From NCBI GenBank assembly GCA_035553715.1, contig DATMJX010000334.1:1-51326 (forward strand): DNA of 51,326 bases. The letters are read 5' to 3'. This stretch comes from Methylibium sp. Lineage in GTDB: Bacteria; Pseudomonadota; Gammaproteobacteria; Burkholderiales; Burkholderiaceae_C. Both the position numbers and the translations under genes were made by a program. Of the stretch, positions 3,878 to 26,038 are shown in pieces. Position 1 is the first letter of the stretch. Each line of letters opens with the position of its first letter. The notes beneath the pieces are model-generated. The model was not told where the DNA came from. It ran no database searches and saw only the letters and a program-made list of their open reading frames with translations.

Positions 3878-5152
3878 TCATCCGAGCAGCTGCTGCATGC
3901 TGCGCTCGACCTGCGTGGTCAGCGCCTCGAAGCGAGCCAGCAGCTGCTCGCTCGCCGCGGCGAGCCGGCGCCGGCCCGCCTCATCACCGGCGCGCGCCGC
4001 GGCCGCCAGCATCAGCGGCCATTCGGCCAGCGCGGCGTCGAGCGCCGCATGCAACTCGGCCCCGGCGATCGGTGCGGCCTGCAGTTCGGCCAGCGCCGCA
4101 TCGACCTCGGCCGCGGTGCGCGCGGCCGCCTCGCGCGCCCGGCCCGCGGCCGGCTCGGGCAGCAGCGCCGCGAACAGCGCCTCCTTCGCGAGCCGCTGGC
4201 TCAGCATGCGCTGCCGCCCGGCCAGGTTGATGATGCGCAGGCTGGGCGCGGCCCCGGCCTGCTCCAGCGCCGCGGTCAGCGTGTCGGCGGCCTGCAGCAG
4301 CGCCTCCGCGCGGCCGTCGAGCGCCAGCAGGCGCTCGGTGCGCGGCGCCTCCTCGAGCGCGGCGCGCAGTGCCGCCCAGGCACCGAGCACACCGTCGAGC
4401 AGGTCGCCGAAGGTCGGCCGTGACAGCAGCTTGCCGAGCTGCTCGATGCGCTCGTCGAGCCTCTCCACCGCACCCGCCTGCTGCGCCAGCGCCGCCTCGG
4501 CATCGCAGCCCCCGGTGCGCAGCGCGTACAGCGCCACCAGGCGCTGCGACAGCATGCGCAGCTGGCCGGCACGGTTGACGCCAGCGGCCTCCTGGGCCGC
4601 GTCGATCAGCTGCTGCGCGAACTGGCCGATGCGCAGCTTCGACTGCATCGCGCTCGTGCGCAGCAGGCGGAAGGCCTCGTCCTCGGGCAGCTGGCGCGCC
4701 AGCATCAGCAGGCCCTTGGCGCGGTCGACCAGCTTGCGTTCCTCGAAGCGGTGGCTGAGCTCGTCGAGCGCCTCGCGCAGGCTGCGCTCACGCTTGAAGC
4801 GCGCCAGCGCCAGCTGGACCAGCGGACGCAGCCGCGCAGGCGCATAGCCCTGCACGACCCAGGCCTGCACGCCGGCGTCGAGCGCGCGCTCGAGCGTCTC
4901 GGCGCTGCCGTCCTGCGCGAAGGCGAGCACCGGGGTCGGCTGGGCCGCCCGCAACAGCTCGAGCGCGCGGAACAGCGCCGCGTCGGCCGGCTGGGCCCAG
5001 CACACCAGCAGGTCGGGCGACTGGCGGACCGCCTCCTGCACCAGCTTGTCGCACGCCACTGCACCAAGGACGTGAATGCCGGCCGCGCCCAGATCGGTGG
5101 CAAGCGCCGGGGCCTGCGGATCGGCACCGACATACAGAAGAACGGAGGTCAC
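3878..5152 (-). CDS. ANTAR-domain regulator (NasT-like) fused to two NarX/PilJ-like sensor domains
   Basis: Pseudo-receiver N-terminus, ANTAR (ERKLVDRAKGLLM...EDEAFRLLRTSAM), then two P-box-like motifs VNRAGQLRMLSQRL and INLAGRQRMLSQRL. Start uncertain (GTG 5152 chosen). Confidence 0.85.
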   Translation of the reverse strand: MTSVLLYVGADPQAPALATDLGAAGIHVLGAVACDKLVQEAVRQSPDLLVCWAQPADAALFRALELLRAAQPTPVLAFAQDGSAETLERALDAGVQAWVVQGYAPARLRPLVQLALARFKRERSLREALDELSHRFEERKLVDRAKGLLMLARQLPEDEAFRLLRTSAMQSKLRIGQFAQQLIDAAQEAAGVNRAGQLRMLSQRLVALYALRTGGCDAEAALAQQAGAVERLDERIEQLGKLLSRPTFGDLLDGVLGAWAALRAALEEAPRTERLLALDGRAEALLQAADTLTAALEQAGAAPSLRIINLAGRQRMLSQRLAKEALFAALLPEPAAGRAREAAARTAAEVDAALAELQAAPIAGAELHAALDAALAEWPLMLAAAARAGDEAGRRRLAAASEQLLARFEALTTQVERSMQQLLG

Positions 5153-5234
5153 GCGTGCAGGCTCGCTCGACAGAGGGGAAACGGGATCAGGCGCGCAGCA
5201 TAGACCAGCCCCGCCCCGGGCCCCCACACGCCGA

Positions 5235-5250
5235 TGGCATGGATGCTGCT
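5235..5250 (+). promoter_or_regulatory. Sigma-54 (-24/-12) promoter for the nitrate transporter
   Basis: TGGCATGGATGCTGCT has GG-N10-GC spacing and is close to the TGGCAC-N5-TTGCW consensus. It lies upstream of a nitrogen-assimilation gene. Confidence 0.7.
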
Positions 5251-5285
5251 ATGCAACACCCGGGGCGCGATGCCGCGCCCGGACC

Positions 5286-5324
5286 GGCATGCACGCCCGG
5301 TCCTGCGCACATCGGCGTGCGCAG
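5286..5324 (+). promoter_or_regulatory. Candidate ANTAR target: tandem hexaloop hairpins in the 5' leader
   Basis: GGC-ATGCAC-GCC followed by CTGCGCAC-ATCGGC-GTGCGCAG. The second loop has the A1/G4 pattern of ANTAR substrates. An ANTAR gene is adjacent. Confidence 0.55.
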
Positions 5325-5384
5325 CTTCGTGCCTTCGGACCGTGTCGCCCCGTGTGGGCACGCGTCCCTCTGCCTGAAGCCGCT

Positions 5385-6686
5385 ATGCACGCCTCCGCCC
5401 GTTCCGGGACCTTCAAGACTTTCGCCGCCGCCGGCCACTGGCCGACGCTGCTGGCCGCCTTCCTCTATTTCGACTTCTGCTTCGCGATCTGGGTGCTGAA
5501 CGGCGCCATGGCGCCCTTCATCAGCGAGGCCTACGGCCTGAGCCCGGCGCAGAAGGGCTTCATGGTCTCGGTGCCGATCCTGGCCGGCGCGCTGATGCGC
5601 TTCCCGCTCGGCGTGCTGGCGCAGTACATCGGCCGCAAGAACGCGGCGATGGTCGAGATGTCGCTGATCGTCGCGGCGCTGGGCTTCGGCTACTTCTTCG
5701 TGAGCAGCTACGACGACGTGCTGGCGATGGGCGTGCTGCTGGGCATCGCCGGCGCGAGCTTCGGCGTCGCGCTGAGCCTGGGCAGCGGCTGGTACCCGCC
5801 GAAGTACAAGGGCCTGGCGATGGGCATCGCCGGTGCCGGCAACTCCGGCACCGTGCTCGCCGTGCTGCTGGCGCCGCCGCTGGCCCAGGCCTATGGCTGG
5901 CAGACCGTCTACGGCCTCGCCGCCTGCACGATGCTGCTGCCGATGGTGGTGATGTGGACCTGCGCCAAGGAGCCGCCGGACCGCGAGCACCAGACGCTGC
6001 GCGAGCATGTCTCCTGCCTGTTCGAGAAGGACGGCTGGGCCTTCAGCCTGATCTACGTCGTGACCTTCGGCGGCTTCATCGGACTGGCCAGCTTCCTGCC
6101 GACCTACTTCCACGACCAGTTCGGCGTCACCAAGGTGCAGGCCGGGCAGCTGACGATGCTGGCGACGCTGATGGGCTCGGCGGTGCGCGTGCTCGGCGGC
6201 TGGATCTCGGACCGCGTCGGCGGCATCTCGACGCTCTCCGGCGTGCTGGTGCTGGTCGCGTTGACGCTCGCGCTGTGCGGCTTCGCCGGCAGCTCGCTGC
6301 CGGTGACGACGCTGCTGTTCATGCTGTGCTTCGCGGCGCTGGGCGCCGGCAACGGCGCGCTGTTCCAGCTGGTGCCGCTGCGCTGGCCGCTGGCCACCGC
6401 GGTGGCCGGCTCGATGATCGGCGAGGTCGGCGCGCTCGGCGGCGGCTTTCTGCCCAACGCGATGGGCCTGTCCAAGCAGTACGGCGGCAGCTACCTGTGG
6501 GGCTTCCTGTCGTTCACCGTGCTCGCGCTGGCGATGCTCGCGATGCTGCGCGTGATGCAGATCCGCTGGACCCGGACCTGGGCCGAGAAGGGCGGCAAGG
6601 CCCGCAGCGCACCGGCGTCGCAGGACTTCGCCGGCGCCGCCGCCGTGCAGCGCGTCGCACGCCAGGAGCCCAAGGCGGCCTCATGA
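5385..6686 (+). CDS. NarK/NasA-family nitrate/nitrite MFS transporter
   Basis: GHWPTLLAAFLYFD, nitrate-signature GIAGASFG and GAGNGALFQLVP, about 12 TM segments. Confidence 0.92.
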   Translation: MHASARSGTFKTFAAAGHWPTLLAAFLYFDFCFAIWVLNGAMAPFISEAYGLSPAQKGFMVSVPILAGALMRFPLGVLAQYIGRKNAAMVEMSLIVAALGFGYFFVSSYDDVLAMGVLLGIAGASFGVALSLGSGWYPPKYKGLAMGIAGAGNSGTVLAVLLAPPLAQAYGWQTVYGLAACTMLLPMVVMWTCAKEPPDREHQTLREHVSCLFEKDGWAFSLIYVVTFGGFIGLASFLPTYFHDQFGVTKVQAGQLTMLATLMGSAVRVLGGWISDRVGGISTLSGVLVLVALTLALCGFAGSSLPVTTLLFMLCFAALGAGNGALFQLVPLRWPLATAVAGSMIGEVGALGGGFLPNAMGLSKQYGGSYLWGFLSFTVLALAMLAMLRVMQIRWTRTWAEKGGKARSAPASQDFAGAAAVQRVARQEPKAAS

Positions 6687-6697
6687 AGCGACGGCGG

Positions 6698-8413
6698 TCA
6701 GCGTGGCAGGAACAGCAGCCACACCACCAGCAAGGCGTTGAACAGCAGCGAGACGACCAGGCCCGCCTTCCACAGCGCGGCCGGGTCGCGCTGGATCAGC
6801 GGGGTGGCGGGCGGCGCGGCGAGCACGCGCGAGGCGCCGCGCTCGAGCGCGAGCAGCAGCTCCTCGGCGGTCTCGAAGCGGTGGCGCGCATCGCGCGCGA
6901 CCGCCTTGGCGAGCAGGTGGTCGAGCCAGATCGGCACGTCCGGACGCAGCCGCGAGGCGTGCGGCGGATCCTGCCGGTAGCGCCCGGTCTGGTAGGGCTC
7001 GATCTCGCCGTAGGGCAGCCGGCCGGTCAGCCAGCGGTAGAGCGTGACGCCGAGCGCGTACAGGTCACTCGCCGCGTCGGCCGGGGCGCCGTCCCACTGC
7101 TCGGGGTTGATGTAGCTCGGCGTGCCGGCGTGCAGCTCGCGCTGCGCGGCCGGCTCGCGGCCCGACAGCGCGACGCCGAGGTCGAGGATGCGCCAGCGGC
7201 CGTCGTCGCCGCGGTGCAGGTTGCCGGGCTTGATGTCACGGTGGATCACGCCCAGGCGGTGCATGCGGCCGAGCGCCTGGGCGACCTGGCTCGCCATCTC
7301 GACAACCTCGGCCACCGACGCACGCGGCTTCGCCTCGAGCATCTGCTCGAGCGTGCGGCCGCCGTGCCAGTCGAACACCGTGTACAGCGCGCTGGGCTCG
7401 GTCAGCTCATGCACGCGCACGAACCCGGCGTCGCCGGCCGCGCCCGGGCTCGCGCCGGCGTAACGCTCGCTCAGCCGCAGGCCCAGCCAGGCCTCGTGGG
7501 CGAGCATCGCGCGCTCCTGCGGATCGCTGGCGCGCGACTCGTGCAGCGTCTTCAGCGCCACCAGGCGGCGCTCGGCGTCGCGCGCCTGGTAGAGCCGGTG
7601 CACGCCGGTGTCGGCCACCCGCGCGGTGACCGTGTAGCCGTCGAGCACGTCGCCGACCTGCAGCGGTGGCGGCGGCGCGAGGCGGCGGCCGCGTGCGAGC
7701 TCGTCCTCGAGCCGGCCCGCATCGAGCGCGCGCACGCGGATCACCAGCGCGCTCGCGTTGTCGTGGCTGCCGGCGGCAAGCGCCGCGTCGACCAGTGCCT
7801 CGCTGGCGGCCTGGGCCCCGCCCTCGCGCAGCAGCGCGGCGAGTCGCTCGCCGCCGAGCACGCCATGCACCCCATCGGTGCTCAGCAGGAAGGTGTCGCC
7901 GACCTGCAGCTCGCCCTGCGCGTAGTCGATGCGCACCGCGTCGTCGAGACCGATCGCACGCGTCAGCCGGCTCGCGAAGTCGATCGACTCGAAGCGGTGG
8001 TCGTGGGTCAGCTGCAGCAGCTCGTCGCCGCGCAGCCGCCAGGCGCGCGTGTCGCCGACATGCGCGATCGTCACGCCATGGCCCTCGAGGGCCAGCGCGG
8101 TCAGCGTCGTCATCGCCACCTCGCCGCCCTTGCCGGCGCGGCCATTGTGCGCGGCCAGCCAGGCGTTCTGCGCGCCGACCAGGCGGTCGAACACGACCGT
8201 GGTCTCCCAGGTCGGTGGCGCGGCGAAGAAGTCCGCCAGCAGGCCCATCACCGTGGTCTGCGCGGCCTCGCGCCCGCGCCCGCCGCTGGACACACCGTCG
8301 GCGATCGCCGCCACCAGCCCGCGCCCCGGCTCGCGCAGCGCACCAGCGAAGTCCTCGTTGTGTTCGCGCGTCCCGCGCCGGCTCGCGTGGCCGATCTCGA
8401 CATCGAAACTCAT
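6698..8413 (-). CDS. Bifunctional PP2C-type phosphatase / Hanks-type Ser/Thr kinase with C-terminal TM
   Basis: PP2C motifs NEDF, IADGVS, HVGDTR, STDGVH, DNAS. Kinase motifs VALK, HRDIKPGN, DLG, GTPSY.NPE, DLYALG. C-terminal hydrophobic helix. Confidence 0.9.
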   Translation of the reverse strand: MSFDVEIGHASRRGTREHNEDFAGALREPGRGLVAAIADGVSSGGRGREAAQTTVMGLLADFFAAPPTWETTVVFDRLVGAQNAWLAAHNGRAGKGGEVAMTTLTALALEGHGVTIAHVGDTRAWRLRGDELLQLTHDHRFESIDFASRLTRAIGLDDAVRIDYAQGELQVGDTFLLSTDGVHGVLGGERLAALLREGGAQAASEALVDAALAAGSHDNASALVIRVRALDAGRLEDELARGRRLAPPPPLQVGDVLDGYTVTARVADTGVHRLYQARDAERRLVALKTLHESRASDPQERAMLAHEAWLGLRLSERYAGASPGAAGDAGFVRVHELTEPSALYTVFDWHGGRTLEQMLEAKPRASVAEVVEMASQVAQALGRMHRLGVIHRDIKPGNLHRGDDGRWRILDLGVALSGREPAAQRELHAGTPSYINPEQWDGAPADAASDLYALGVTLYRWLTGRLPYGEIEPYQTGRYRQDPPHASRLRPDVPIWLDHLLAKAVARDARHRFETAEELLLALERGASRVLAAPPATPLIQRDPAALWKAGLVVSLLFNALLVVWLLFLPR

Positions 8414-8445: not shown

Positions 8446-8461
8446 TGGCACCCGCTTTGCT
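8446..8461 (+). promoter_or_regulatory. Sigma-54 (-24/-12) promoter for the nirB operon
   Basis: TGGCACCCGCTTTGCT is an exact match to TGGCAC-N5-TTGCW, ending 26 nt before the nirB ATG. AGGAG Shine-Dalgarno follows. Confidence 0.88.
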
Positions 8462-8487: not shown

Positions 8488-10929
8488 ATGAAGAAGATGA
8501 AACTCGTGATGGTGGGCAACGGCATGGCCGGCGTGCGCACGCTGGAAGAGCTGCTGAAGATCGCGCCCGATCTCTACGAGATCACCGTGTTCGGCGCCGA
8601 GCCGCACCCGAACTACAACCGCATCCTGCTGTCGCCGGTGCTGGCCGGCGAGCAGACGATCGACGAGATCATCCTCAACCCGCTCGAGTGGTATGCCGAG
8701 CACGGCATCACGCTGCACACCGGCAAGAAGGTGGTCGACATCGACCGCGTCAAGCGCATCGTGCGCGCCGAGGACGGCACCGAGGCCGAGTACGACCGCC
8801 TGCTGCTGGCCACCGGCTCCAACCCCTTCATGCTGCCGATCCCGGGCCGCGAGCTCGAGGGCGTGATCGGCTACCGCGACATCGCCGACACCCACACGAT
8901 GATCGAGGCGGCCACCAAGTACAAGCACGCGGTCGTCATCGGCGGCGGCCTGCTCGGCCTCGAGGCCGCCAACGGCCTGATGCTGCGCGGCATGCAGGTC
9001 ACCGTCGTGCACATCACGCCGACGCTGATGGACCGCCAGCTCGACGGCATCGCCGGCAAGCTGCTGCAGAAGTCGCTCGAGCAACGCGGCATCCGCTTCC
9101 TGATGGGCGCGAGCACCGAGGCGCTGATCGGCGGCAAGGACGGCCGCGTGATGGCGGTCAAGTTCAAGGACGGCCAGGAGATCCCGGCCGACCTGGTGGT
9201 GATGGCCGCCGGCATCCGCCCCAACACCGAGCTGGCCGAGAAGATCGGCATCCACTGCCACCGCGGCATCGTCGTCTCCGACACGATGCAGACCGTCACC
9301 GACCCGCGCGTCTACTCGGTCGGCGAGTGCGCGGCGCACCGCGGCATCGCCTATGGCCTGGTCGCGCCGCTGTTCGAGCAGGGCAAGGTCTGCGCGACCC
9401 ACCTCGCGCAGTTCGGCATCGGCCGCTACACCGGCAGCCAGGTTTCGACCAAGCTCAAGGTCACCGGCATCGACCTGTTCTCGGCCGGCAACTTCCAGGG
9501 CGGCGAGGGCTGCGAGGAGATCGTGATGAGCGATCCCTTCGGCGGTGTCTACAAGAAGCTCGTGATCAAGGACGACCAGCTGGTCGGTGCCTGCCTGTAC
9601 GGCGACACGGTCGACGGCAGCTGGTACTTCAAGATGCTGCGCGAGGGCCGCAAGATCGGCGACATCCGCGCCACGCTGCTGCACGGCGAGGCCGGCGCCA
9701 ACATCGGCGACACCGGCCACGAGGGCCACACCAAGGCCGCCAGCATGCCCGACGACGCCGAGGTCTGCGGCTGCAACGGCGTCAACAAGGGCACGATCTG
9801 CAAGGCCATCAAGGACAAGGGCCTGTTCACGCTGGAGGAGGTGAAGAAGCACACGAAGGCCAGCGCGTCCTGCGGTTCCTGCACCGGCCTGGTCGAGCAG
9901 ATCCTGATGTTCACCGCCGGCGGCGACTACTCGAAGGCACCGACCAAGAAGGCGATGTGCGGCTGCACCGACGCCAGCCACCAGGAGGCGCGCGAGGCCA
10001 TCAAGGCCGAGAAGCTGCTGACCATCGACAGCGTCTACAAGCGCCTGGGATGGCGCACGCCCAACGGCTGTTCCTCGTGCCGCCCGGCGATCAACTACTA
10101 CCTGATCAGCAGCTGGCCGAAGGAGGCCAAGGACGACCCGCAGTCGCGCTTCATCAACGAGCGCAGCCACGCCAACATCCAGAAGGACGGCACCTACTCG
10201 GTGATCCCGCGCATGTGGGCCGGCGAGACCACCGCCGACGAGCTGCGCCGCATCGCCGACGCGGTCGACAAGTACAAGATCCCGACGGTCAAGGTCACCG
10301 GCGGCCAGCGCATCGACCTGCTTGGCGTCAAGAAGGAAGACCTGGTCAATGTCTGGAAGGACATCGGCATGCCTTCGGGCCACGCCTACGCGAAGGCGCT
10401 GCGCACCGTGAAGACCTGCGTCGGCAGCGAGTGGTGCCGCTTCGGCACCCAGGACTCGACGCAGATGGGCAAGGACCTCGAGCGCGCGCTGTGGCGCATG
10501 TACGCGCCGCACAAGGTCAAGATCGCCGTGTCGGGCTGCCCGCGCAACTGCGCCGAGGCCGGCATCAAGGACGTCGGCGTGATCGGCGTCGACTCGGGCT
10601 GGGAGATCTACGTCGCCGGCAACGGCGGCATCAAGACCGAGGTCGCGCACTTCTTCTGCAAGCTCAAGACCGCCGAGGAGGTGCTCGAGTACAGCGGCGC
10701 CTTCCTGCAGCTCTACCGCGAGGAGGGCTGGTACCTCGAGCGCACCGTGCACTGGGTCGGCCGCGTCGGCCTCGATTACGTCAAGAAGAAGATCCTCGAC
10801 GACGCCGCGGGCCGCCAGGCGCTGTGGGAGAGGCTGAAGTTCAGCCTCGAGGGCGAGGCCGATCCGTGGTTCGAATTCGACAAGGCGGCGGTCGACACCC
10901 GCCAGTTCACGCCCGTGGGAGCGCTGTGA
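8488..10929 (+). CDS. nirB: Assimilatory NAD(P)H nitrite reductase large subunit
   Basis: GNGMAG FAD motif, YNRILLSPVLAGE, GGGLLGLEAA, BFD-type CGCN...CGSC, siroheme/4Fe-4S KTCVGSEWC and SGCPRNC. Confidence 0.96.
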   Translation: MKKMKLVMVGNGMAGVRTLEELLKIAPDLYEITVFGAEPHPNYNRILLSPVLAGEQTIDEIILNPLEWYAEHGITLHTGKKVVDIDRVKRIVRAEDGTEAEYDRLLLATGSNPFMLPIPGRELEGVIGYRDIADTHTMIEAATKYKHAVVIGGGLLGLEAANGLMLRGMQVTVVHITPTLMDRQLDGIAGKLLQKSLEQRGIRFLMGASTEALIGGKDGRVMAVKFKDGQEIPADLVVMAAGIRPNTELAEKIGIHCHRGIVVSDTMQTVTDPRVYSVGECAAHRGIAYGLVAPLFEQGKVCATHLAQFGIGRYTGSQVSTKLKVTGIDLFSAGNFQGGEGCEEIVMSDPFGGVYKKLVIKDDQLVGACLYGDTVDGSWYFKMLREGRKIGDIRATLLHGEAGANIGDTGHEGHTKAASMPDDAEVCGCNGVNKGTICKAIKDKGLFTLEEVKKHTKASASCGSCTGLVEQILMFTAGGDYSKAPTKKAMCGCTDASHQEAREAIKAEKLLTIDSVYKRLGWRTPNGCSSCRPAINYYLISSWPKEAKDDPQSRFINERSHANIQKDGTYSVIPRMWAGETTADELRRIADAVDKYKIPTVKVTGGQRIDLLGVKKEDLVNVWKDIGMPSGHAYAKALRTVKTCVGSEWCRFGTQDSTQMGKDLERALWRMYAPHKVKIAVSGCPRNCAEAGIKDVGVIGVDSGWEIYVAGNGGIKTEVAHFFCKLKTAEEVLEYSGAFLQLYREEGWYLERTVHWVGRVGLDYVKKKILDDAAGRQALWERLKFSLEGEADPWFEFDKAAVDTRQFTPVGAL

Positions 10930-11309
10930 TGAGCACCTGGAAGAAGATCTGTTTCGTCGCGGACATCCCCGCGCTCGGCTCGCGCCGCGTGCAGCGCCCG
11001 CAGGGCGTCGCGGTGGCGCTGTTCCGCACCGCCGAGGACCGCGTGTTCGCCGTGCTGGACCGCTGTCCGCACAAGGGCGGCCCGCTGAGCCAGGGCATCG
11101 TGTTCGGCAACAGCGTCGCCTGCCCGCTGCACAACTGGACCATCGGGCTGGACGACGGCTGCGCAGCGGCCCCCGACGAGGGTTGCACCCCCTCGTTCGC
11201 CTGCAAGGTCGAGGGCGACGAGGTCTATCTCGACGCCGACGAGCTCGCCACCAAGGCGCTGGACCTGCTCGCGCCGACCGCCGGCCCGAAGAGGCACTCC
11301 GCCGCCTGA
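10929..11309 (+). CDS. nirD: Nitrite reductase small (Rieske) subunit
   Basis: MSTWKKIC...DRCPHKGGPLSQG...VACPLHNW. TGATG overlap with nirB. Confidence 0.94.
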   Translation: MSTWKKICFVADIPALGSRRVQRPQGVAVALFRTAEDRVFAVLDRCPHKGGPLSQGIVFGNSVACPLHNWTIGLDDGCAAAPDEGCTPSFACKVEGDEVYLDADELATKALDLLAPTAGPKRHSAA

Positions 11310-11334
11310 TCGCTCGAGCCCTGGGAGGACGACC

Positions 11335-13581
11335 ATGCTGTTTGGCCGCAAGCACCGCAAGCCGATCAAGATCCCGGTCAAGGCGGTGAACGAGTGGAAG
11401 TACACGACCTGCAACTACTGCTCGACCGGCTGCGCGATCGAGATCGGCCTGAACGAGCAGGGCCGCATCGTCACCAGCCGCGGCCATGCCGGCGCCGACG
11501 TCAACCGCGGCAAGCTGTGCATCAAGGGCCTGCTCGAGCACGACCTGTTCGAGTCGCCCGGCCGCGGCAAGGTGCCGCTGATGCGCGAGAAGGCCCACCT
11601 GCCCTTCCAGCCGACCGGCTGGGACGGTGCGCTCGACAAGGTGGCATCGAAGATCAAGGAGATCCAGGCCCAGTACGGGCGCGACGCCTTCGCGGTGGTC
11701 TCGACAGGCCAGCTGCTGACCGAGGAGTTCTACACCCTCGGCAAGCTGGTGCGCGGGCAGATCGGCACCAACAACTACGACGGCAACACGACGCTGTGCA
11801 TGGCCTCGGCGGTGTCGGGCTACAAGCGCAGCTTCGGCTCCGACGGCCCGCCGGGCTGCTACGAGGACTTCGAGCACACCCACTGCCTGATGGCCTTCGG
11901 CTCGAACCTGCCGGAGCAGCACCCGATCATCTACTGGCGCCTGAAGGAGGCGCTGGAGAAGCGTAAGTTCCCGGTCATCGTGGTCGACCCGCGCGTGACG
12001 ATGCTCGCGCAGTTCGCCGACATCCACCTGCCGATCACGCCCGGCACCGACACGGTGCTGATCAACGCGATGATGCATGTGATCCTCAAGGAAGGCCTGG
12101 AGGACCGCGAGTACATCGACAAGTACACCCAGGGCATCGACGCGCTGCGCGCGCTGGTGGCCGACTACGACCCCAAGATCGCCCAGCACGAGTGCGGCAT
12201 CGACGAGGACCGCATCCGCCAGGTCGCGCGCCTGTACGCGAAGGCGCCGGCGGCAATGAGCATCTGGACCATGGGCATCAACCAGTCCACCCACGGCTCG
12301 GACGGCGTCGTCAACATCAACAACCTGAACCTGATCACCGGCAACATCGGCAAGCCGGGCGGCACCAGCCTGTCGATCACCGGCCAGTGCAACGCGATGG
12401 GCACGCGCGAGTGGTCCTCCTGCTCGGGCCTGCCGGGCTACCGCCTGCTCGAGAAGGAGAAGGACCGCCAGCAGATCGCCGACTTCTGGGGCATCGACGC
12501 GGGCTTCTTCCCGCCCAAGCGCGGTCTGTCGCAGACCGACATCTTCCCGGCCATCGAGACCGGCGAGATCAAGGGCCTGTGGCTGGTGGCCACCAACCCG
12601 ATGACCTCGATGCCCAACCAGCCGCGCATCCGCAAGGCGATGGAGAACCTCGAGTTCCTGGTGGTGCAGGACGTCTACGAGGACGTCGAGACCAACCAGT
12701 ACGCGCACGTCTACCTGCCGGCGGCGGTGTGGGCCGAGAAGGAAGGCTGCCACACCAACACCGAGCGCCGCGTCAACCTGACGCGCAACGCGCTGAAGCC
12801 CTTCGCCGATTCGAAGCCCGACTTCTGGATCTTCAAGGAGATGGCCAAGCGCTTCACCGACCGCAACGCCATCCACTACCCCGAGACGCCCGAGGGCGCC
12901 TTCGAGGAGATGAAGCAGCTGTCGGTGGGCGCGGGCCGCACGCTGGACATCTCGGGCATGAGCTACGAGCGCATCGAGGCGGCACGCGGCATCCAGTGGC
13001 CCTACAGCGCCGCGCAGGCCGCCGCCGACGAGGCGCGCCTGGGCGCCCCCGGCGCCTTCGACATGCAAAAGCGCGTCGACCTCAAGGGCGACCCGCGGCT
13101 CTACGCCGACGGTCGCTTCCAGACCGACAGCGGCCGCGCGAACCTGATCCCGGTGCGCTTCGTCAACAACAACGAGGTGCCCGATGCCGAGTACCCGTTC
13201 TGGTTCAACTCGGGCCGCGTGGTCGAGCATTTCCACACCCGCACCCGCACCGGGAAGATCGGCAACTGCAACAAGTTCAGCCCGACGCCCTACATGGAGA
13301 TGAACCCCGACGCGGCCGAGGAGCTGGGCGTCGAGCACCAGAGCTATGTGCGCGTGGTCAGCCGCCGCGGCGACGCGATCGTGATGGTGCAGCTGACCCA
13401 CCGCGTGCCGCGCAACATGGTCTTCGTGCCCTTCCACTACCACGACTGCGTCAACCGCATCTCGCTCGGCCTGCTCGACCCCTATTCGCGCCAGCCGGCC
13501 TTCAAGCAGTGCGCCGCGCGCATCGAAAAGGTCGACCAGCGCGAAGCCGCACGCCTGAACATGGAACGCCGCGCGTTCTGA
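11335..13581 (+). CDS. Molybdo-bis-PGD oxidoreductase, assimilatory nitrate reductase catalytic subunit (NasA/NasC/NarB type), no Tat signal
   Basis: CNYCSTGC...LCIKG 4Fe-4S motif, STGQLLTEE, NTTLCMASA with Cys Mo ligand, WTMGINQS, TGQCNAMG, TNTERR, C-terminal QPAFK. No C-terminal BFD domain. Confidence 0.88.
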   Translation: MLFGRKHRKPIKIPVKAVNEWKYTTCNYCSTGCAIEIGLNEQGRIVTSRGHAGADVNRGKLCIKGLLEHDLFESPGRGKVPLMREKAHLPFQPTGWDGALDKVASKIKEIQAQYGRDAFAVVSTGQLLTEEFYTLGKLVRGQIGTNNYDGNTTLCMASAVSGYKRSFGSDGPPGCYEDFEHTHCLMAFGSNLPEQHPIIYWRLKEALEKRKFPVIVVDPRVTMLAQFADIHLPITPGTDTVLINAMMHVILKEGLEDREYIDKYTQGIDALRALVADYDPKIAQHECGIDEDRIRQVARLYAKAPAAMSIWTMGINQSTHGSDGVVNINNLNLITGNIGKPGGTSLSITGQCNAMGTREWSSCSGLPGYRLLEKEKDRQQIADFWGIDAGFFPPKRGLSQTDIFPAIETGEIKGLWLVATNPMTSMPNQPRIRKAMENLEFLVVQDVYEDVETNQYAHVYLPAAVWAEKEGCHTNTERRVNLTRNALKPFADSKPDFWIFKEMAKRFTDRNAIHYPETPEGAFEEMKQLSVGAGRTLDISGMSYERIEAARGIQWPYSAAQAAADEARLGAPGAFDMQKRVDLKGDPRLYADGRFQTDSGRANLIPVRFVNNNEVPDAEYPFWFNSGRVVEHFHTRTRTGKIGNCNKFSPTPYMEMNPDAAEELGVEHQSYVRVVSRRGDAIVMVQLTHRVPRNMVFVPFHYHDCVNRISLGLLDPYSRQPAFKQCAARIEKVDQREAARLNMERRAF

Positions 13582-13597
13582 CCCCGAGGCCCCCGCG

Positions 13598-15571
13598 ATG
13601 CTGAACATCTCCGTGAACCCGCGCACCGGCGAAGCCTCGGTCGCCCCCCTGCCCCGCCCGGCGCCGGCGCCGCTCGAAGAGCGCCCGCTGTGGGAAGTGC
13701 GCACCGAAGAGCGCGACTACGCCTACCTGCCGAAGGTCGAGCTGCCCGACGTGAACCGCTACGGCCAGAAGATCGACCTGATCGAGCTGACCGGCGGCCA
13801 GGGGCCGATGCAGGCCCCGGGCCGCTCGATGTACATCAACGAGAACCCGCAGGTCGGCCCGAACCCGAACCGCAACAAGCAGCACGGCTTCTACTTCACC
13901 GCCGACAACTGCATCGGCTGCCATGCCTGCGAGGCCGCGTGCAGCGAGAAGAACGAGAACCCGCCGCACCTGGCCTTCCGCTCGGTCGGCTATGTCGAGG
14001 GCGGCAGCTTCCCCGACTACAAGCGCATGAACATCTCGATGGCCTGCAACCATTGCGATGACCCGGTGTGCCTGAAGGGCTGCCCGACCAAGGCCTACAC
14101 CAAGCACACCGAGTACGGCGCGGTGCTGCAGGACCCGGACACCTGCTTCGGCTGCGGCTACTGCACCTGGGTGTGCCCCTACAACGCGCCGCAGCTCGAC
14201 CCGGTCAAGGGCCAGGTCAGCAAGTGCAACATGTGCGTGGACCGGCTGGAGGTCGGCCTGAAGCCCGCCTGCGTCGCGGCCTGCGTCGGCAATGCGCTGG
14301 ACTTCGGCGTCATCGAGACCGTGCCGAAGAACCGCGAGCAGGCACGCGCCGAGATCCCCGGCTTCCCCTCGCCCGAGATCACGCACCCGAACATCCGCTT
14401 CCAGCAGATCAAGCAGCTGCCGGACGAGATGAAGCGCACCGACTCGATGCCGGTCAAGTACCACAAGGACGAGCAGGGCCGCTACCGCCCGTCGATCGAC
14501 CAGAAGGCGGGCCGGCAGGCGCACTGGAACCTCGCGCGCCTGTCCTCGCGCGAGAACCCGCTGGTGCTGTTCACGCTCGCCGCGCAGGGCGCGATGGGCG
14601 CCTTCGCGCTGCAGTTCCTCGGCGCCTGGGCCGGCCTGCCGGGCTTCGCCGAGTTCGCCGCCTCGCCGATGTACCTGCCGCTGGCCATGCTCGAGTTCGC
14701 GCTGGTCGCCTTCGCGCTGTTCATGTCGACGGTGCACCTGGGCAAGCCGCTGCGCTTCTACCGCGGCTTCAACAACCTGCGCTACTCGCCGGTCTCGCGC
14801 GAGGGGCTGGGCATCGCCCTCTTCATCGCCGGCCTCGGCGGCCACATCGTGCTGGGCCTGCCGGCGCATCCCTGGCTCGCCGGGCTGTTCGGCGGGCTGC
14901 CGCCGGCCCTCGCCGCGCTGGCGGCCCAGGGCGCGCGCGTCAGCGGCCTGCTCGGCCTGCTGGCCGGCGCCGTGGGCCTTTACTACATGACGCGCTGCTA
15001 CCGCATCAAGGCGCGGCCCTTCTGGGACCACTGGCAGGTCGCGACCGCCTTCGGCGGCAGCGCGCTCTCGCTCGGCAGCCTGCTGGCCGGCGCGGTCATG
15101 CTGCCGGCGCTGGCCTTCGCCGGCCAGGCCTACGCGAGCGTGGCGCTGGTCTGCGCCGCACTGCTGGCGGGCGGCTTGGCGATCGAGGGCCTCGGCCACA
15201 TCGCCCATGCCCGCGATCTCGGCCGCGCCGAGCACGAAGGGGGGGCGTCCTACTACGTGCAGACGACGACCTTCGGCAAGACCTACGCGCTGCGCAACGT
15301 GCTGCTGGGCACGAACCTGCTGCTGGTGCTGAGCAGCATCACGGCGCTGGCCAGCGGCCACGGCGGCCCCTGGGTGCTGGCGACGCTGGCGCTGGCCGGC
15401 GTACTGCTGCTCGCGACCAGCCTGATCGGCCGCGCACTGTTCTACGTGCTGGTGATCCCGACCACGATGCCCGGCGCCTTCTTCTGGAAGAACAAGGGCT
15501 TCGAGGAGCATGCGCGCGCGATCGGCCTGGCGCACCTGCCGCAGGTCGGCGTCGCGCCGTTGAAGCACTGA
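13598..15571 (+). CDS. Fused DmsB-like 4x[4Fe-4S] domain + DmsC/YnfH-like membrane anchor
   Basis: CIGCHACEAAC, CNHCDDPVCLKGCP, CFGCGYCTWVCP, KCNMC...ACVAAC, then ENPLVLFT and HLGKPLRFY...NNLRYSPVSRE (DmsC-like) with about eight hydrophobic segments. Confidence 0.88.
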   Translation: MLNISVNPRTGEASVAPLPRPAPAPLEERPLWEVRTEERDYAYLPKVELPDVNRYGQKIDLIELTGGQGPMQAPGRSMYINENPQVGPNPNRNKQHGFYFTADNCIGCHACEAACSEKNENPPHLAFRSVGYVEGGSFPDYKRMNISMACNHCDDPVCLKGCPTKAYTKHTEYGAVLQDPDTCFGCGYCTWVCPYNAPQLDPVKGQVSKCNMCVDRLEVGLKPACVAACVGNALDFGVIETVPKNREQARAEIPGFPSPEITHPNIRFQQIKQLPDEMKRTDSMPVKYHKDEQGRYRPSIDQKAGRQAHWNLARLSSRENPLVLFTLAAQGAMGAFALQFLGAWAGLPGFAEFAASPMYLPLAMLEFALVAFALFMSTVHLGKPLRFYRGFNNLRYSPVSREGLGIALFIAGLGGHIVLGLPAHPWLAGLFGGLPPALAALAAQGARVSGLLGLLAGAVGLYYMTRCYRIKARPFWDHWQVATAFGGSALSLGSLLAGAVMLPALAFAGQAYASVALVCAALLAGGLAIEGLGHIAHARDLGRAEHEGGASYYVQTTTFGKTYALRNVLLGTNLLLVLSSITALASGHGGPWVLATLALAGVLLLATSLIGRALFYVLVIPTTMPGAFFWKNKGFEEHARAIGLAHLPQVGVAPLKH

Positions 15572-15644
15572 ACACCATGCCGCCTGTAGAGCTTGACAGG
15601 GTGGATCGAGCGGGCTTTGGCCCGGGACTTGCGAAACTGCGGCC

Positions 15645-16598
15645 ATGGGCATCGCGCACTATCTGAAGGAAATCGGCCGCGGCAAGGAAGGCGCGCGGTC
15701 GCTCGATGCTGCGCAGGCGCAGGACCTGATGGCCCAGGTGCTCGACCGCCAGGTCAGCGAGGCCGAGCGTGGCGCCTTCGCGATCGCGATGCGCATCAAG
15801 GGCGAGAGCCTCGAGGAGCTGAGCGGCTTCACCGCCGCAGCGGCCGAGCGCAGCCTCGCGCTCGACGCCGGTGCGCTGCCGGTGCTGCTGCCGTCCTACA
15901 ACGGTGCGCGCAAGCTGCCCAACCTGACCGCGCTGCTGGCGCTGCTGCTCGCGCAGGAGGGCGTGCCGGTGCTGGTGCACGGGCCCGAGCGCGACCCGGG
16001 CCGCGTCACCACCCACGAGCTGTTCACCGCGCTCGGTCTGCCGGTCGCGCACGATGCCGAGGACGTGCACGCCGCGTGGCGGCGCCACGAACCGGTGTTC
16101 ATGCCGACCGGCGCGCTGTGCCCGCCGCTGCAGGCCCTGCTCGACCTGCGCTGGACACTCGGCCTGCGCAACCCCGCGCACACCGTCGCGAAGCTGCTGA
16201 CGCCGAGAGCGACGCCCTGCCTGCGCGTCGTCAACTACACCCACCCCGAGTACGGCCACGCCCACACCCGCTTCCTGCAGGCCAGCCGCGCCCACGCACT
16301 GCTGCTGCGCGGCACCGAGGGCGAGCCGGTGGCCGATCCGCGCCGCCTGCCCAGGCTCGAGGTCTACCTCGACGGCGTCGCCCGCCCCGACCTCGGCCGC
16401 GCGCCGCAGGAAGGCGTGCTGACCGGCCTGCCGCTGCTGCCGCGCTGCGACGCGGCCAGCACCGCGCTGTACGTGCAGGCCGCGGTCAGCGGCGAGCAGC
16501 CGGTGCCGGTGGCCCTGCTCGAGCAGGTCGAGGTGCTGGTCAAGGCGCGCAGCGCGCTGCAGCAACATCTGGAGAGAGCCCATGAACGCTCGGCCTGA
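15645..16598 (+). CDS. ybiB: YbiB-like (TrpD2 / glycosyltransferase family 3 fold) DNA-binding protein
   Basis: YLKEIGRGKEGARSL, AMRIKGE, PSYNGARKLPNLT, LRGTEGE motifs. Confidence 0.88.
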   Translation: MGIAHYLKEIGRGKEGARSLDAAQAQDLMAQVLDRQVSEAERGAFAIAMRIKGESLEELSGFTAAAAERSLALDAGALPVLLPSYNGARKLPNLTALLALLLAQEGVPVLVHGPERDPGRVTTHELFTALGLPVAHDAEDVHAAWRRHEPVFMPTGALCPPLQALLDLRWTLGLRNPAHTVAKLLTPRATPCLRVVNYTHPEYGHAHTRFLQASRAHALLLRGTEGEPVADPRRLPRLEVYLDGVARPDLGRAPQEGVLTGLPLLPRCDAASTALYVQAAVSGEQPVPVALLEQVEVLVKARSALQQHLERAHERSA

Positions 16599-17352
16599 GC
16601 CCCCCCGTGTCCAGCTCGTCGGCGCTGGCCCCGGCGACCCGGAGCTGCTGACCCTGAAGGCCGTGCGCGCGATCCGCGGCGCCACCGTGCTGCTGGTCGA
16701 CGACCTGGTCGGCGAGGGCGTGCTGAAGTACGCGCGCAAGTCGGCGCGCCTCGTCCACGTCGGCAAGCGCGGCGGCTGCCGCAGCACGCCGCAGGCCTTC
16801 ATCGAGCAGCTGATGCTGCGCGAGGCGCTGGCCGGCGAGCGCGTCGTGCGCCTCAAGGGCGGCGATCCCTTCGTCTTCGGCCGCGGCGGCGAGGAGGCCG
16901 AGACGCTGCGCGCGCATGGCGTCGAGGTCGAGATCGTCAACGGCATCACCGCAGGCCTGGCCGCGGCGACCTCGCTGGGCGCGCCGCTGACGCACCGCGA
17001 GCATGCGCATGGCGTGATGTTCGTGACCGGCCACGCGAAGGAAGGCGCCGACGGCCTCGACTGGGCGGTTCTCGGCGCCGCGGCTGCACAGGGGCTGACC
17101 CTGGTGATCTACATGGGCGTCGCGCAGGCCGCGACGCTGCAGGCCGGGCTGCGCGCGGCGCTGCCCGGCAGCACCCCGCTGGCCATCGTGCAGTCGGCCA
17201 GCCGGCCGGAGCAGCGGCACGCGGTGACCACGCTCGACGGGCTGCTCGACACGCTGGCGCGGGAGCGCCTCGGCAGCCCGGCCGTGCTGATCGTCGGCGA
17301 GGTGCTGCGCGGCTTGGGCGCGCTGACCCTGCCGCAGGCCGCGGCAGCCTGA
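16582..17352 (+). CDS. cobA: Uroporphyrinogen-III C-methyltransferase (siroheme supply)
   Basis: LVGAGPGDPELLTLKA, RLKGGDPFVFGRGGEE, LVIYMG. Confidence 0.93.
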   Translation: MNARPEPPRVQLVGAGPGDPELLTLKAVRAIRGATVLLVDDLVGEGVLKYARKSARLVHVGKRGGCRSTPQAFIEQLMLREALAGERVVRLKGGDPFVFGRGGEEAETLRAHGVEVEIVNGITAGLAAATSLGAPLTHREHAHGVMFVTGHAKEGADGLDWAVLGAAAAQGLTLVIYMGVAQAATLQAGLRAALPGSTPLAIVQSASRPEQRHAVTTLDGLLDTLARERLGSPAVLIVGEVLRGLGALTLPQAAAA

Positions 17353-22714: not shown

Positions 22715-23578
22715 TCAGGCGCGCGCCGGCTGGGCCAGCGACGGCTCGGCGTCGAAACGCTCGAAGCCGCTGTAGCAGAGGAAGTGCCGGTTCATCGCGC
22801 GGCCGAACAGCGCCAGGCCGAGCCGCGTCGCGAGCTCGTGGCCCATTTGCGTGATGCCCGAGCGCGACACGACGATCGGCACGCCCATCTGAGCCGACTT
22901 GATGACCATCTCGCTGGTCAGCCGGCCGGTCGTGTAGAAGGCCTTGTCGGCACCGCCCTGGCCCTGCAACCACATCCATCCGGCCAACGTGTCGATCGCG
23001 TTGTGGCGGCCGACGTCCTCGACGAAGCGCTCCAGGCGCGCATCGTCGCCATCGATCGTGAAGATCGCGCAGCCGTGCACCGAACCGGCCGACTTGTAGG
23101 TGCTCTCCTGCCGCCGCACCGCCTCCAGCAGCGCGTAGAGAGCGCGCTGGCTGATGCGTGCCTGCGCGGCCGACGGCAGCACGACCGCGTCGAGCTCGTC
23201 CATCAAGCCACCGAACACCGTGCCTTGCCCGCAGCCGGTGGTGACGACACGCCGGGCGGTCTTGCGCTCGAAGTCCTCGATGCCACGCCGGGTCCGGACC
23301 GCGGCGGCGCCGACGTCCCAGTCCACGGTGATCGACTCGATGTCGTGCACCGCGCCGACCAGCCGCTGGTTGCGCAGGTAGCCAAGTACCAGCAGCTCCG
23401 GCGCCGCGCCCAGCGTCATCAGCGTGACGAGCTCGCGCTTGTCGACGAAGACCGTCAGCGGCCGCTCCGCCGGGATCTGGATCGCCTGGCGCGCGCCAAG
23501 CTCGTCCAGCACCTCGACCGTGCGGGTCAACGGGACGCCGGCGGCGGTCAGCCTCGGCAGGGCGTCAGGAGACGTCAT
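22715..23578 (-). CDS. fdhD: Formate dehydrogenase accessory sulfurtransferase FdhD
   Basis: ERPLTVFV, TTGCGQG, GSVHGCA, EDVGRHNAID, TGRLTSEMVIK. Confidence 0.92.
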   Translation of the reverse strand: MTSPDALPRLTAAGVPLTRTVEVLDELGARQAIQIPAERPLTVFVDKRELVTLMTLGAAPELLVLGYLRNQRLVGAVHDIESITVDWDVGAAAVRTRRGIEDFERKTARRVVTTGCGQGTVFGGLMDELDAVVLPSAAQARISQRALYALLEAVRRQESTYKSAGSVHGCAIFTIDGDDARLERFVEDVGRHNAIDTLAGWMWLQGQGGADKAFYTTGRLTSEMVIKSAQMGVPIVVSRSGITQMGHELATRLGLALFGRAMNRHFLCYSGFERFDAEPSLAQPARA

Positions 23579-23659
23579 CGCGCGAGCATCGCACAAGCCG
23601 ACACCGCAGCGGCACGCAGGCGAAGACAGGGCGGTCGCGCCGGCGTCGGCGCAAGCGCC

Positions 23660-24013
23660 TCACTTGCGGGGCGGTGCCGCCGTGGCAGCCGGCGCCGCGG
23701 CCACCGGCGCAGCGGGCGCCGGTGCGACGCCATCGGGGTTGTAGACGAAGGGGCCCGGGTCGGCGCAGGCCGGCGTCGCGGTGGCCGAGCCCGGATCCTT
23801 GCCACTGCTCTTGAAGTAGTGCGCCGCGGTCCGGTCCATCGCCAGGCACAGCTTGTAGGCGCTGACCTTGTCGCCGTGCGCCGTCTTGGCCTTGGCCTCG
23901 TCGGCCTTGGCCTTGGCCTCGGGCGTCGGTGCCGGCAGCTTCGCCAGCGCGGCGACCGGGAGGGCGAGCAGCGCCGCGCACGACGCGGCGATCCAGGGGT
24001 GCATTCGGGTCAT
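23660..24013 (-). CDS. Small secreted hypothetical protein in the fdh cluster
   Basis: Sec-type signal (CAALLALPVAALA), Ala/Lys-rich helix, two Cys (YKLC, ACADPGPF). AGGAGG Shine-Dalgarno upstream. Confidence 0.7.
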   Translation of the reverse strand: MTRMHPWIAASCAALLALPVAALAKLPAPTPEAKAKADEAKAKTAHGDKVSAYKLCLAMDRTAAHYFKSSGKDPGSATATPACADPGPFVYNPDGVAPAPAAPVAAAPAATAAPPRK

Positions 24014-24033
24014 CGCGGGCCTCCTCGTGGGTC

Positions 24034-25134
24034 TCAAGCCGGCACGGTCGGGTTCGTGGGCGGCGCGCTCGCCGAACGCTGGGCGGGAATCTTGCCCGCC
24101 GCAACGTCCGCGGCCCACAGCTCATGGTGCTCGCGGGCCCAGGTCTCGTCGACGTAGCCGCTGCGCATCGCCTGGTAGGCCCCCTTCATGCCGATCGTGC
24201 CGAGGTAGATATGGCCGAGGAACATCGCCATCATCAGGATCGTCGCGACCGCGTGGATGATGTGCGCGATCTGCATGTCGCCACGCGTGTAGGCCAGGCC
24301 CGGGATCAGCTTGTCGAGCACCAGCCCCGAGGCGACCACCAGCGCGCCCAGCGCGAACACGCCGCCCCAGAAAACGATCTTCTCGCCGGCGTTGAAGCGG
24401 TGCGAGGGCACGTGCGCGCCATTGAACAGGCCGCCGCCCTTGGCGAGCCAGACGAGGTCGTCACGGCTCGGCAGGTTGTCACGCACGAAGGTCAGGAACA
24501 CGATCAGCAACGACACCGCGAACAGCGGCCCGGCGAAGTTGTGCGCGGTCTTCAGCGCGTAGGCAAGGCCGCCGAACAGCGTGCCGCCGATCACCGGCAG
24601 CAGGAAGAACTTGCCGAAGGCCATCACCACCCCCGACACCGCCAGCACGACGAAGGCGGCCGCGTTGCTCCAGTGCGCCGCGCGCTCGAAGTAGGTGAAG
24701 CGCTCGATCTTGCGGCCGGTCTCCGCCCCGTGCAGGCCGATGCTGCCGCGGGCCCGGTAGAACAGCGCGATCGCCAGCAGCGTGATCAGCAGCAGCCCGC
24801 CACCGTAGGGCAGGATCCAGCGGTTGCGCAGCTCGCGCCAGGCCTCGCCGGCGGTCGTCAGCCTGGTGCCCGGGTAGCGGACGAATTCCTGGATCAGCAC
24901 CCCCTTCTCGGCGCCCGGCAGGCTGGTGGTGCCGGCCTCGCCGCCGGAGCCGCGCACCGCGCGCCAGAACGGCGCGTTGTTGTAGGGCTGGGTCTGGCTG
25001 CGCTCCGCGTTGCTCTCGGCGGCCGAGGCCGCCGGCAGGGCCTCGGCCGGCGCCGGCTGAGCCCACGCGAGGGCACCCCACAGCGCCAGCAGGCTGGCGG
25101 CGCACCACGATCGAAGCTTGCAGCTCATGGCCAT
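24034..25134 (-). CDS. Formate dehydrogenase gamma subunit (cytochrome b556) with N-terminal periplasmic extension
   Basis: IERFTYFERAAHW, HNFAGPLF, RFNAGEK, H...HIYLG, WAREHHELW heme-b motifs. Signal-like N-terminus. Confidence 0.9.
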   Translation of the reverse strand: MAMSCKLRSWCAASLLALWGALAWAQPAPAEALPAASAAESNAERSQTQPYNNAPFWRAVRGSGGEAGTTSLPGAEKGVLIQEFVRYPGTRLTTAGEAWRELRNRWILPYGGGLLLITLLAIALFYRARGSIGLHGAETGRKIERFTYFERAAHWSNAAAFVVLAVSGVVMAFGKFFLLPVIGGTLFGGLAYALKTAHNFAGPLFAVSLLIVFLTFVRDNLPSRDDLVWLAKGGGLFNGAHVPSHRFNAGEKIVFWGGVFALGALVVASGLVLDKLIPGLAYTRGDMQIAHIIHAVATILMMAMFLGHIYLGTIGMKGAYQAMRSGYVDETWAREHHELWAADVAAGKIPAQRSASAPPTNPTVPA

Positions 25135-25156
25135 CCTCGCTTGCGGCTCGTACCGC

Positions 25157-25411
25157 TCACTGCGTGCGCTGGTACTCGTTCTGCTGCTGACCCCGCTGCC
25201 TGAGCTGCTGCTCCCAGCTCGCGCGGTCACCGGCCGTCCAGCCCTCGGCACGGAAGGCCGGGGACGGGCCTCCGTCCCAGGCCTTGGCATCGGCCTTCTT
25301 GGGCGCCTTCGCCCCCTCCTGCGGCGCATCCCCGCAAGCCGCGAGGCCCGCCAGCACCGCGGCGAGCACCGCCCGCACCGCGATGCGCCCGCGCACGAGC
25401 GGCGCGTTCAT
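25157..25411 (-). CDS. Small putative lipoprotein in the fdh operon
   Basis: Lipobox LAAC after a hydrophobic stretch. WTAGDRASWEQQLRQRGQQQNEY tail. ATGA overlap with the beta subunit. Confidence 0.75.
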   Translation of the reverse strand: MNAPLVRGRIAVRAVLAAVLAGLAACGDAPQEGAKAPKKADAKAWDGGPSPAFRAEGWTAGDRASWEQQLRQRGQQQNEYQRTQ

Positions 25412-26028
25412 GATTGCCCCGCCCCGGTCTTGGCCGCGCCGCCCGGCTTGCCGTAGGCCGTGCCCCAGCCCCAGACCTCGGAGCCCTTGCCGCGGTTGAG
25501 CACGCGGGTGCGGAAGATGTCGGCGACCACGTCGCCATCGCCACCGAGCAGGGCCTTGGTGGAGCACATCTCGGCGCAGGCCGGCAGCTTCCCCTCGGCG
25601 AGACGGTTGCTGCCGTACTTCTCGAACTCCTCGTGCGAGCCGTTGGCCTCCGGACCGCCGGCGCAGAAGGTGCACTTGTCCATCTTGCCGCGCAGGCCGA
25701 AGGTGCCGTTGGTCGGAAACTGCGGCGCGCCGAAGGGGCAGGCATAGCTGCAGTAGCCGCAGCCGATGCAGATGTCCTTGTCGTGCAGCACCACGCCCTC
25801 GTCGGTGCGGTAGAAGCAGTCGACCGGGCAGACCGCCATGCAGGGCGCGTCGCTGCAGTGCATGCAGGCCACCGAGATGCTGCGCTCGCCGGGCTGGCCG
25901 TCCCCCATCGTGACGACGCGCCGCCGGTTCACGCCCCAGGGCACCTCGTGCTCGGCCTTGCAGGCCGTGACGCAGCCATTGCACTCGATGCAACGCTCGG
26001 CATCGCAGATGAACTTCATTCGAGCCAT
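25408..26028 (-). CDS. Formate dehydrogenase iron-sulfur (beta) subunit, FDH3 type
   Basis: CIECNGCVTAC, CMHCSDAPCMAVCP, CIGCGYCSYACP, KCTFC...ACAEMC. Confidence 0.93.
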   Translation of the reverse strand: MARMKFICDAERCIECNGCVTACKAEHEVPWGVNRRRVVTMGDGQPGERSISVACMHCSDAPCMAVCPVDCFYRTDEGVVLHDKDICIGCGYCSYACPFGAPQFPTNGTFGLRGKMDKCTFCAGGPEANGSHEEFEKYGSNRLAEGKLPACAEMCSTKALLGGDGDVVADIFRTRVLNRGKGSEVWGWGTAYGKPGGAAKTGAGQS

Positions 26029-26038
26029 CGTCGTCTCC

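Follow-up and report, generated by a model that had tools for sequence, protein, structure and literature searches.

In a 51,326-nucleotide (nt) contig of Methylibium sp. (DATMJX010000334.1 of assembly GCA_035553715.1; its full length is called the window), a molybdoenzyme gene is followed 16 nt downstream, on the same (+) strand, by a gene fusing a DmsB-like iron-sulfur (Fe-S) domain to a DmsC-family membrane anchor (Table 1). We followed up an original prediction that this pair reduces nitrate in the cytoplasm with electrons from the quinone pool. Judged from sequence, the pair is probably a two-subunit quinol:nitrate oxidoreductase at the inner face of the membrane that carries out the first step of nitrate assimilation.

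The genomic context points to a replacement of NasA, the canonical assimilatory nitrate reductase. The enzyme family is carried by 4 of the 16 genomes of the genus. Among 10 loci of the genus, the pair lies between nirD and ybiB in two, and canonical NasA follows directly after nirD in eight other species; seven of these eight NasA loci continue with ybiB and the eighth is cut by the contig end. Pair and NasA loci share the same flanking genes as far as the contigs reach. All of 16 carrier genomes (15 of them at least 90% complete) encode NirB and two encode canonical NasA, leaving 14/16 with NirB and without canonical NasA. In the genome of the window itself (87% complete) no canonical NasA was found, and narG is located on another contig. 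The in-place swap and the carrier counts therefore indicate that the pair stands in for NasA, and its position in the NasA slot between nirD and ybiB backs the assimilatory role that had been proposed. The hallmarks of the assimilatory class are found together: a predicted cytoplasmic location, nirBD, a transporter and nitrogen-type regulation.

The catalytic subunit contains the Pfam domains Molybdop_Fe4S4, Molybdopterin and Molydop_binding only and ends directly after the pterin-binding domain. As originally claimed, Pfam detects no Fer2_BFD domain; it is absent from 62 enzyme members (0/62), whereas canonical NasA carries it. The ligands of the cluster FS0 are Cys 26/29/33/62, and the molybdenum (Mo) ligand Cys155 is followed by Met156. 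When the enzyme is aligned with NapA of D. desulfuricans, Cys155-Met156, Asp170 and Arg358/Glu359 correspond to Cys140-Met141, Asp155 and Arg354/Asp355 (numbering taken from the alignment); we take these to be the ligand and the funnel Asp and Arg. These residues are invariant in 36/36 aligned enzyme members, which are kin and not independent cases. All elements of a Cys-ligated Nas/Nap-type enzyme are present (the four-Cys motif of FS0, Cys-Met, funnel Asp and Arg), and the aligned ligand and funnel residues are consistent with nitrate as the proposed substrate. The best nitrate-reductase match in the PDB is NapA (2jim, E 3e-126); the NarG model TIGR01580 reached 43 bits against a cut-off of 1084. 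A formate dehydrogenase, the top scorer in NCBIfam and the PDB, was rejected because the enzyme has Cys-Met where formate dehydrogenases have Cys-His; canonical NasA, too, stays under the NCBIfam cut-offs and scores highest on the Fdh-alpha model.

In quick maximum-likelihood trees (78 and 31 rows) the enzyme family formed a branch with 100% support outside the NasA/NarB-type clade and NapA. Approximately unbiased (AU) tests on the quick 31-row tree, from which characterised NarB and NasC (including Bacillus NasC) were absent, rejected a grouping with the wide NasA/NarB-type clade (p 0.0008), with proteobacterial NasA alone (p far below 0.0008) and with NapA (p 0.003). The tree neighbours are short enzymes, some with twin-arginine translocation (Tat) signals. 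By these trees the enzyme is a separate lineage rather than a trimmed NasA/NarB; the label Nas/NarB-like given to it earlier holds for its Cys/Met-type nitrate-reductase residues and not for its phylogenetic position. A second enzyme subfamily (45% identical), named Acidobacteria by its sources, has a similar fusion gene upstream in 65/65 loci with room for it and nirB, nirD or narK in 64/80 loci. A single clade of proteobacterial and acidobacterial-type enzymes is compatible with the data but not demonstrated by them (AU p 0.37). In a midpoint-rooted tree of the anchors (~20% identity) the fusion was nearer to DmsC than to SoeC, and no conclusion was drawn from this placement.

The partner is a single polypeptide, as predicted, in which one frame joins a Fer4_11 match (residues 146-238) to the DmsC family PF04976 (319-618, 54.8 bits, cut-off 22.3). 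Its N-terminal arm is conserved, its 16 Cys form four cluster motifs (residues 105-229), and four [4Fe-4S] clusters are predicted. The anchor comprises eight helices (320-617), confidently modelled by AlphaFold as a single chain, and shows the DmsC/NrfD-family layout of two four-helix bundles with Ser/His in transmembrane helix 2 (TM2), Glu at TM3 and Arg in TM8. S377, H380 and E402 are invariant and R612 is near-invariant: the equivalents of DmsC Ser62, His65 and Glu87 occur in 76/76 fusion anchors and that of Arg271 in 75/76. The fold compares with ActC (Z 24.4, root-mean-square deviation (rmsd) 3.0, 294 aligned) and PsrC (Z 19.6, rmsd 3.4, 245 aligned). DmsC Glu87 is reportedly tied to menaquinol binding, going by the title of a reference. 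His65 is required for quinol oxidation in DmsC, and the Arg in TM8 has been proposed as a proton gate (PMC8076601; all articles are cited from the parts available). From the anatomy of the partner and its invariant quinol-site residues we infer that quinol is the electron donor.

Neither protein of the window contains a twin-arginine motif according to a pattern search, nor does any of 62 enzyme homologues (0/62) or 75 fusion homologues (0/75), in line with the lack of signals first described; the pattern, widened after a stricter form had missed the positive control, detected 9/9 known or expected Tat substrates. A Tat signal hidden further upstream was ruled out: none is found in the in-frame sequence 5' of the start, and the start itself is conserved in 36 members. 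The orientation of the anchor was assessed from the mean number of lysines and arginines (K+R) on the N-terminal side and the other side. This number is 17.0/1.4 for the fusion anchors (N-in in 76/76), 17.6/1.8 for the acidobacterial-type anchors (N-in in 64/64) and 15.8/1.6 for SoeC-like anchors (N-in in 16/16; the label is based on a Tat-less A subunit of 940-1050 amino acids (aa) at 9/16 and on recall, with no match to a Soe model). DmsC shows 4.8/8.3 and the opposite bias in 12/13, with one tie, after trimming of untranslated upstream residues (untrimmed 6.5/8.3, with 3/13 the other way). By the positive-inside rule the K/R-rich side faces the cytoplasm, and therefore the N-terminus, the fused Fe-S domain and the quinol site should all do so. 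The absent Tat motifs and the charge bias together support the proposed cytoplasmic location. The suggested inversion relative to DmsC agrees with the N-in bias in 76/76 and is not without precedent, given that an inverted eight-helix DmsC-family anchor has been hypothesised for SoeC (PMC8076601). Most NrfD-family anchors face the periplasm (PMC8076601) and several of the nearest other enzyme clusters carry Tat signals, so a periplasm-facing complex like DmsABC was considered; with no Tat motif in either homologue set and a charge bias opposite to DmsC throughout, it is extremely improbable. A basic conserved N-terminal arm (P0001 residues 1-18), which has no hydrophobic region and touches the partner in the complex model described below, could be a remnant signal peptide by analogy with NarG (PMC10609526).

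Fusion relatives are encoded in 705/716 matched stretches, and an estimated ~1,100 stretches in the GTDB species set encode the partner. Among the best 80 of the 705 relatives (the 80 loci), the enzyme gene lies directly upstream of the fusion in 75, four are cut by contig ends and one, L078, is an exception. The spread is patchy, with 10/400 genomes of the family and at least 3/300 of the phylum. Structure prediction of both proteins together, a check proposed at the outset, is in keeping with a complex: the enzyme with fusion residues 31-280 scored 0.93 and the best of three controls 0.00, with a score mark that is reached by 116/157 solved pairs and 2/215 mismatched pairs, and the value may reflect likeness rather than binding because similar A-B complexes are solved. 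At least 94% of contacts recur between runs, the predicted local distance difference test of the partner is at least 86, and in the model Cys62, a ligand of FS0, lies next to the fusion's first cluster motif (108-114). A search for an unfused anchor brought up mainly incomplete proteins from short contigs and showed no stand-alone form, and 0/72,556 plasmid records cover 80% of the fusion. RNA libraries yielded short low-depth contigs of the locus only, which cannot show transcription. A conserved gene of 127-148 aa lies directly 3' of the fusion in L002 (9996-10379), L024 (9899-10315), L027 (9943-10389) and L028 (10077-10496); the three copies scanned match no Pfam family. In L007, ~2.5 kb of extra DNA (~5460-7960) separates the enzyme and fusion genes and contains small toxin-antitoxin-like and HNH-like open reading frames (ORFs), together with a short stretch repeating the end of the enzyme.

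In the proposed mechanism, the NarK-type carrier would bring nitrate in, quinol would be oxidised at a site of Ser377, His380 and Glu402 close to the cytoplasmic face, and two electrons would pass via the four [4Fe-4S] clusters and FS0 to Mo. Nitrate would be reduced there to nitrite, which NirBD would reduce to ammonium with NADH. In its simplest version the reaction would carry no net charge across the membrane, since the quinol site and the catalytic site would share one side. The potential of ubiquinol is about +0.1 V. That of nitrate/nitrite is well above it (+0.42 V; PMC12300631). Alternatively, the enzyme may be an assimilatory nitrate reductase for which the anchor is a mere tether, with electrons passing from NADH via NirBD or from ferredoxin into the four-cluster domain. 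NirB is present in 16/16 carriers and is the known donor route for Paracoccus NasC (PMC6618116), yet the BFD domain of canonical NasA is missing, and a mere tether would not need the quinol-site Ser, His and Glu that are invariant in 76/76; we regard this explanation as improbable. Beyond a quinol:nitrate oxidoreductase serving assimilation, the pair might represent a fourth nitrate-reductase architecture beside Nas, Nap and Nar, with its own Thr-marked lineage, a B-C fusion, a quinol site that is inverted and free of haem and, at its boldest, proton translocation. We consider this rather unlikely; if true, species recorded as having neither Nar nor Nap would have one enzyme for both nitrate assimilation and energy conservation.

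Several observations speak against a quinol-fed assimilatory nitrate reductase. None of the nitrate-reductase models of NCBIfam scores the enzyme above its cut-off (Fdh-alpha scores highest, also below its cut-off). Two residues before the Mo ligand it has Thr153 where NapA has Arg138; this Thr is found in 62/62 proteobacterial and 119/119 acidobacterial-type members, the Arg is kept in nearly all NasA, NapA and formate dehydrogenase rows, and on alignment the family-wide exchange is an active-site change. The Fe-S part of the single-chain AlphaFold model has low confidence, bd oxidase ties with PsrC in the fold comparison, and Foldseek gave no match at E <= 0.001 (ActC and PsrC ranked first, above E 0.001). 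L078 (4756-6789) has the fusion without an enzyme gene in the 4.7 kb upstream, which contain unrelated genes, and may be an orphan, a rearrangement or a misassembly. No nirB or nirD is seen within the flank in 8/41 full-flank loci. Cyanobacterial NarB needs low-potential donors, so quinol would suffice only if the enzyme is tuned like NapA. The potential of ubiquinol is about +0.1 V. That of nitrate/nitrite is well above it (+0.42 V; PMC12300631).

Canonical NasA is moreover kept in the same cluster in 13/80 loci, and among 50 carrier genomes (those of 50 of the 80 loci) 14 contain a long NasA-type gene and one more a fragment; with NasA beside it in some carriers, the pair is not always the sole candidate. 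This coexistence, NarG in only 14/50 of these genomes and the conservation in 75/76 of the TM8 Arg, the proposed proton gate (PMC8076601), would fit a mainly dissimilatory role, either as a nitrogen-regulated electron sink or as a respiratory nitrate reductase that moves protons, to which assimilation would be incidental. We hold such a role to be improbable as well, considering that the pair takes the place of NasA in this genus, that the sigma-54 sites and the ANTAR regulator point to nitrogen control and that the genome of the window has narG. The substrate could also be another oxyanion or an N-oxide, used as nitrogen source or detoxified, as the separate lineage, the Arg-to-Thr exchange and the coexistence with NasA might suggest; with the NapA-type funnel and ligand residues kept and the pair being the sole candidate beside NirB in 14/16 carriers, this is highly improbable.

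The pair was described nowhere in the open-licence full text searched, which leaves subscription journals mostly outside its coverage. It is real, widespread and apparently undescribed, composed of known parts, and SoeABC is its architectural precedent. Like NasA, NasC and NarB (e.g. Paracoccus NasC with NasG/NasB), the enzyme is a presumably cytoplasmic protein with Cys-ligated Mo-bis-pyranopterin guanine dinucleotide; it is 36-40% identical to canonical NasA and has the same operon slot beside nirBD, narK and cobA. Unlike Nas, the pair has no BFD or flavin module, has a membrane partner instead and belongs to a separate clade. With the sulfite:quinone oxidoreductase SoeABC it shares a presumed cytoplasmic Mo subunit, a four-cluster subunit and the N-in charge bias, from which the inverted anchor and cytoplasmic subunits are deduced. 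Unlike in SoeABC, the catalytic lineage (not SoeA-type) and substrate are different, electrons would flow in the opposite direction and B and C are fused; the anchors are ~20% identical and the enzyme matches SoeA partially (~28-31%, N-terminal third only). E. coli DmsABC resembles the pair in its DmsB-like domain (TIGR02951 162 bits, below the cut-off of 214) and its PF04976 anchor with the Ser62, His65, Glu87 and Arg271 equivalents, but is Tat-exported, periplasm-facing, N-out biased and encoded by three separate genes; the pair has neither a Tat motif nor an N-out charge bias. NarGHI is likewise a quinol:nitrate oxidoreductase with a cytoplasmic active site, as proposed for the pair, but NarG is Asp-ligated with ~1,240 aa and NarI is a dihaem protein, in contrast to the 748-aa Cys-ligated subunit and the cofactor-less anchor. 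The short Desulfovibrio NapA has the same ligand and funnel residues; unlike NapA, the pair has no Tat signal and no napBCDGH, and the two do not group.

Ferredoxin is a further donor of Nas enzymes. Known Nas uses NADH, and the textbook split assigns quinol to Nar and NADH or ferredoxin to Nas (PMC6618116); a quinol-fed assimilatory enzyme, if true, breaks this split. NarI releases protons to the P side (PMC6303296). The available part of PMC8076601 names no nitrate-linked member among the complexes it lists. In A. thiooxidans, narB and nirBD form an atypical cluster together with a conserved but unassigned gene (PMC2607301, in the part available); this cluster may or may not be the system described here. 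Methylotenera Mmol_1648 is described as serving assimilation and denitrification (PMC7240106). With quinol as donor, the electrons of a heterotroph could still drive proton pumping at complex I on their way to nitrate; in lithotrophs or methanotrophs, which make NADH at the expense of reverse electron transport, NADH would be saved. The partner is annotated 'DMSO reductase anchor subunit' by the sources, and nitrogen and sulfur pathway calls are therefore likely wrong in the genomes of the ~1,100 estimated stretches. Cultured carriers exist, which makes the system directly testable. Neither canonical NasA nor narG was found in the cultured carrier Roseateles paludis DJS-2-20 (L013), and both the pair and NasA occur in Pseudomonas fluvialis S00202 (L015) and Rhodoferax ferrireducens (L017).

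Table 1. Features of the window around the enzyme and fusion genes.
Feature	Position	Strand	Basis or remark
Molybdoenzyme gene, 748 aa	11335-13581	+	Pfam, ORF call
DmsB-like/DmsC-family fusion gene, 657 aa	13598-15571	+	Pfam, ORF call
nirB, NAD(P)H nitrite reductase large subunit	8491-10929	+	TIGR02374 933 bits, cut-off 578
nirD, Rieske-type small subunit	10929-11309	+	TIGR02378 above cut-off
ybiB-family gene	15645-16598	+	after NasA or enzyme/fusion pair in genus
cobA, uroporphyrinogen-III methyltransferase, siroheme precursor for NirB	16582-17352	+	
NarK-family nitrate/nitrite major facilitator superfamily transporter	5385-6686	+	TIGR00886 below cut-off
ANTAR regulator with two PilJ/NarX-like domains	3878-5227	-	Pfam; start codon uncertain
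PP2C phosphatase / Ser-Thr kinase fusion	6698-8413	-	recurring neighbour of these clusters
Sigma-54-type -24/-12 promoter match, 5' of nirB	8446-8461	+	

The genes of the window are arranged in the order ANTAR regulator, NarK-type transporter, phosphatase-kinase, nirB, nirD, enzyme, fusion, ybiB and cobA. The profile matches and the -24/-12 match at 8446 place both genes of the pair inside a sigma-54 nirBD...cobA operon, as the original prediction had stated. A weaker sigma-54-like match is found at 5235, before the narK-type transporter gene. The strict consensus occurs 5 times in the genome, and a looser match is found in the 300 nt before the first gene at 23/54 related loci versus 1/378 control windows. 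An assembly or frameshift artefact was ruled out by a 4680-nt contig from another run, probably DNA, which covers 11127-15806 without a gap, spans both genes and differs from the window by 10 letters. Recent transfer was sought by composition and gave no signal, the GC content at third codon positions of the pair being 0.97, like that of nirB.

The ANTAR protein joins a receiver-like region, the ANTAR domain and the two PilJ/NarX-like domains. One of its motifs resembles what we take to be a nitrate-sensing P-box, and the protein is likely a one-protein nitrate sensor and antiterminator. The leader upstream of the transporter (5260-5390, +) contains a hairpin run (z -2.4) with two hairpins that have six-base loops, and is possibly the ANTAR target. 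A two-domain stand-alone PilJ/NarX-like protein with a signal-peptide-like N-terminus is encoded between nirB and nirD in L001 (4414-5178), L002, L013, L017, L025, L067 and L074; it is not present in the window. Many of the 80 loci, from both beta- and gammaproteobacteria, have the phosphatase-kinase fusion next to genes of nitrate assimilation, and in the genus and many Burkholderiales the TrpD-like ybiB-family gene comes after NasA or the pair. Further downstream, the window contains a Tat-type formate dehydrogenase operon (22715-28993, -; alpha, FDH3 beta, gamma and fdhD), a possible ordinary source of quinol.

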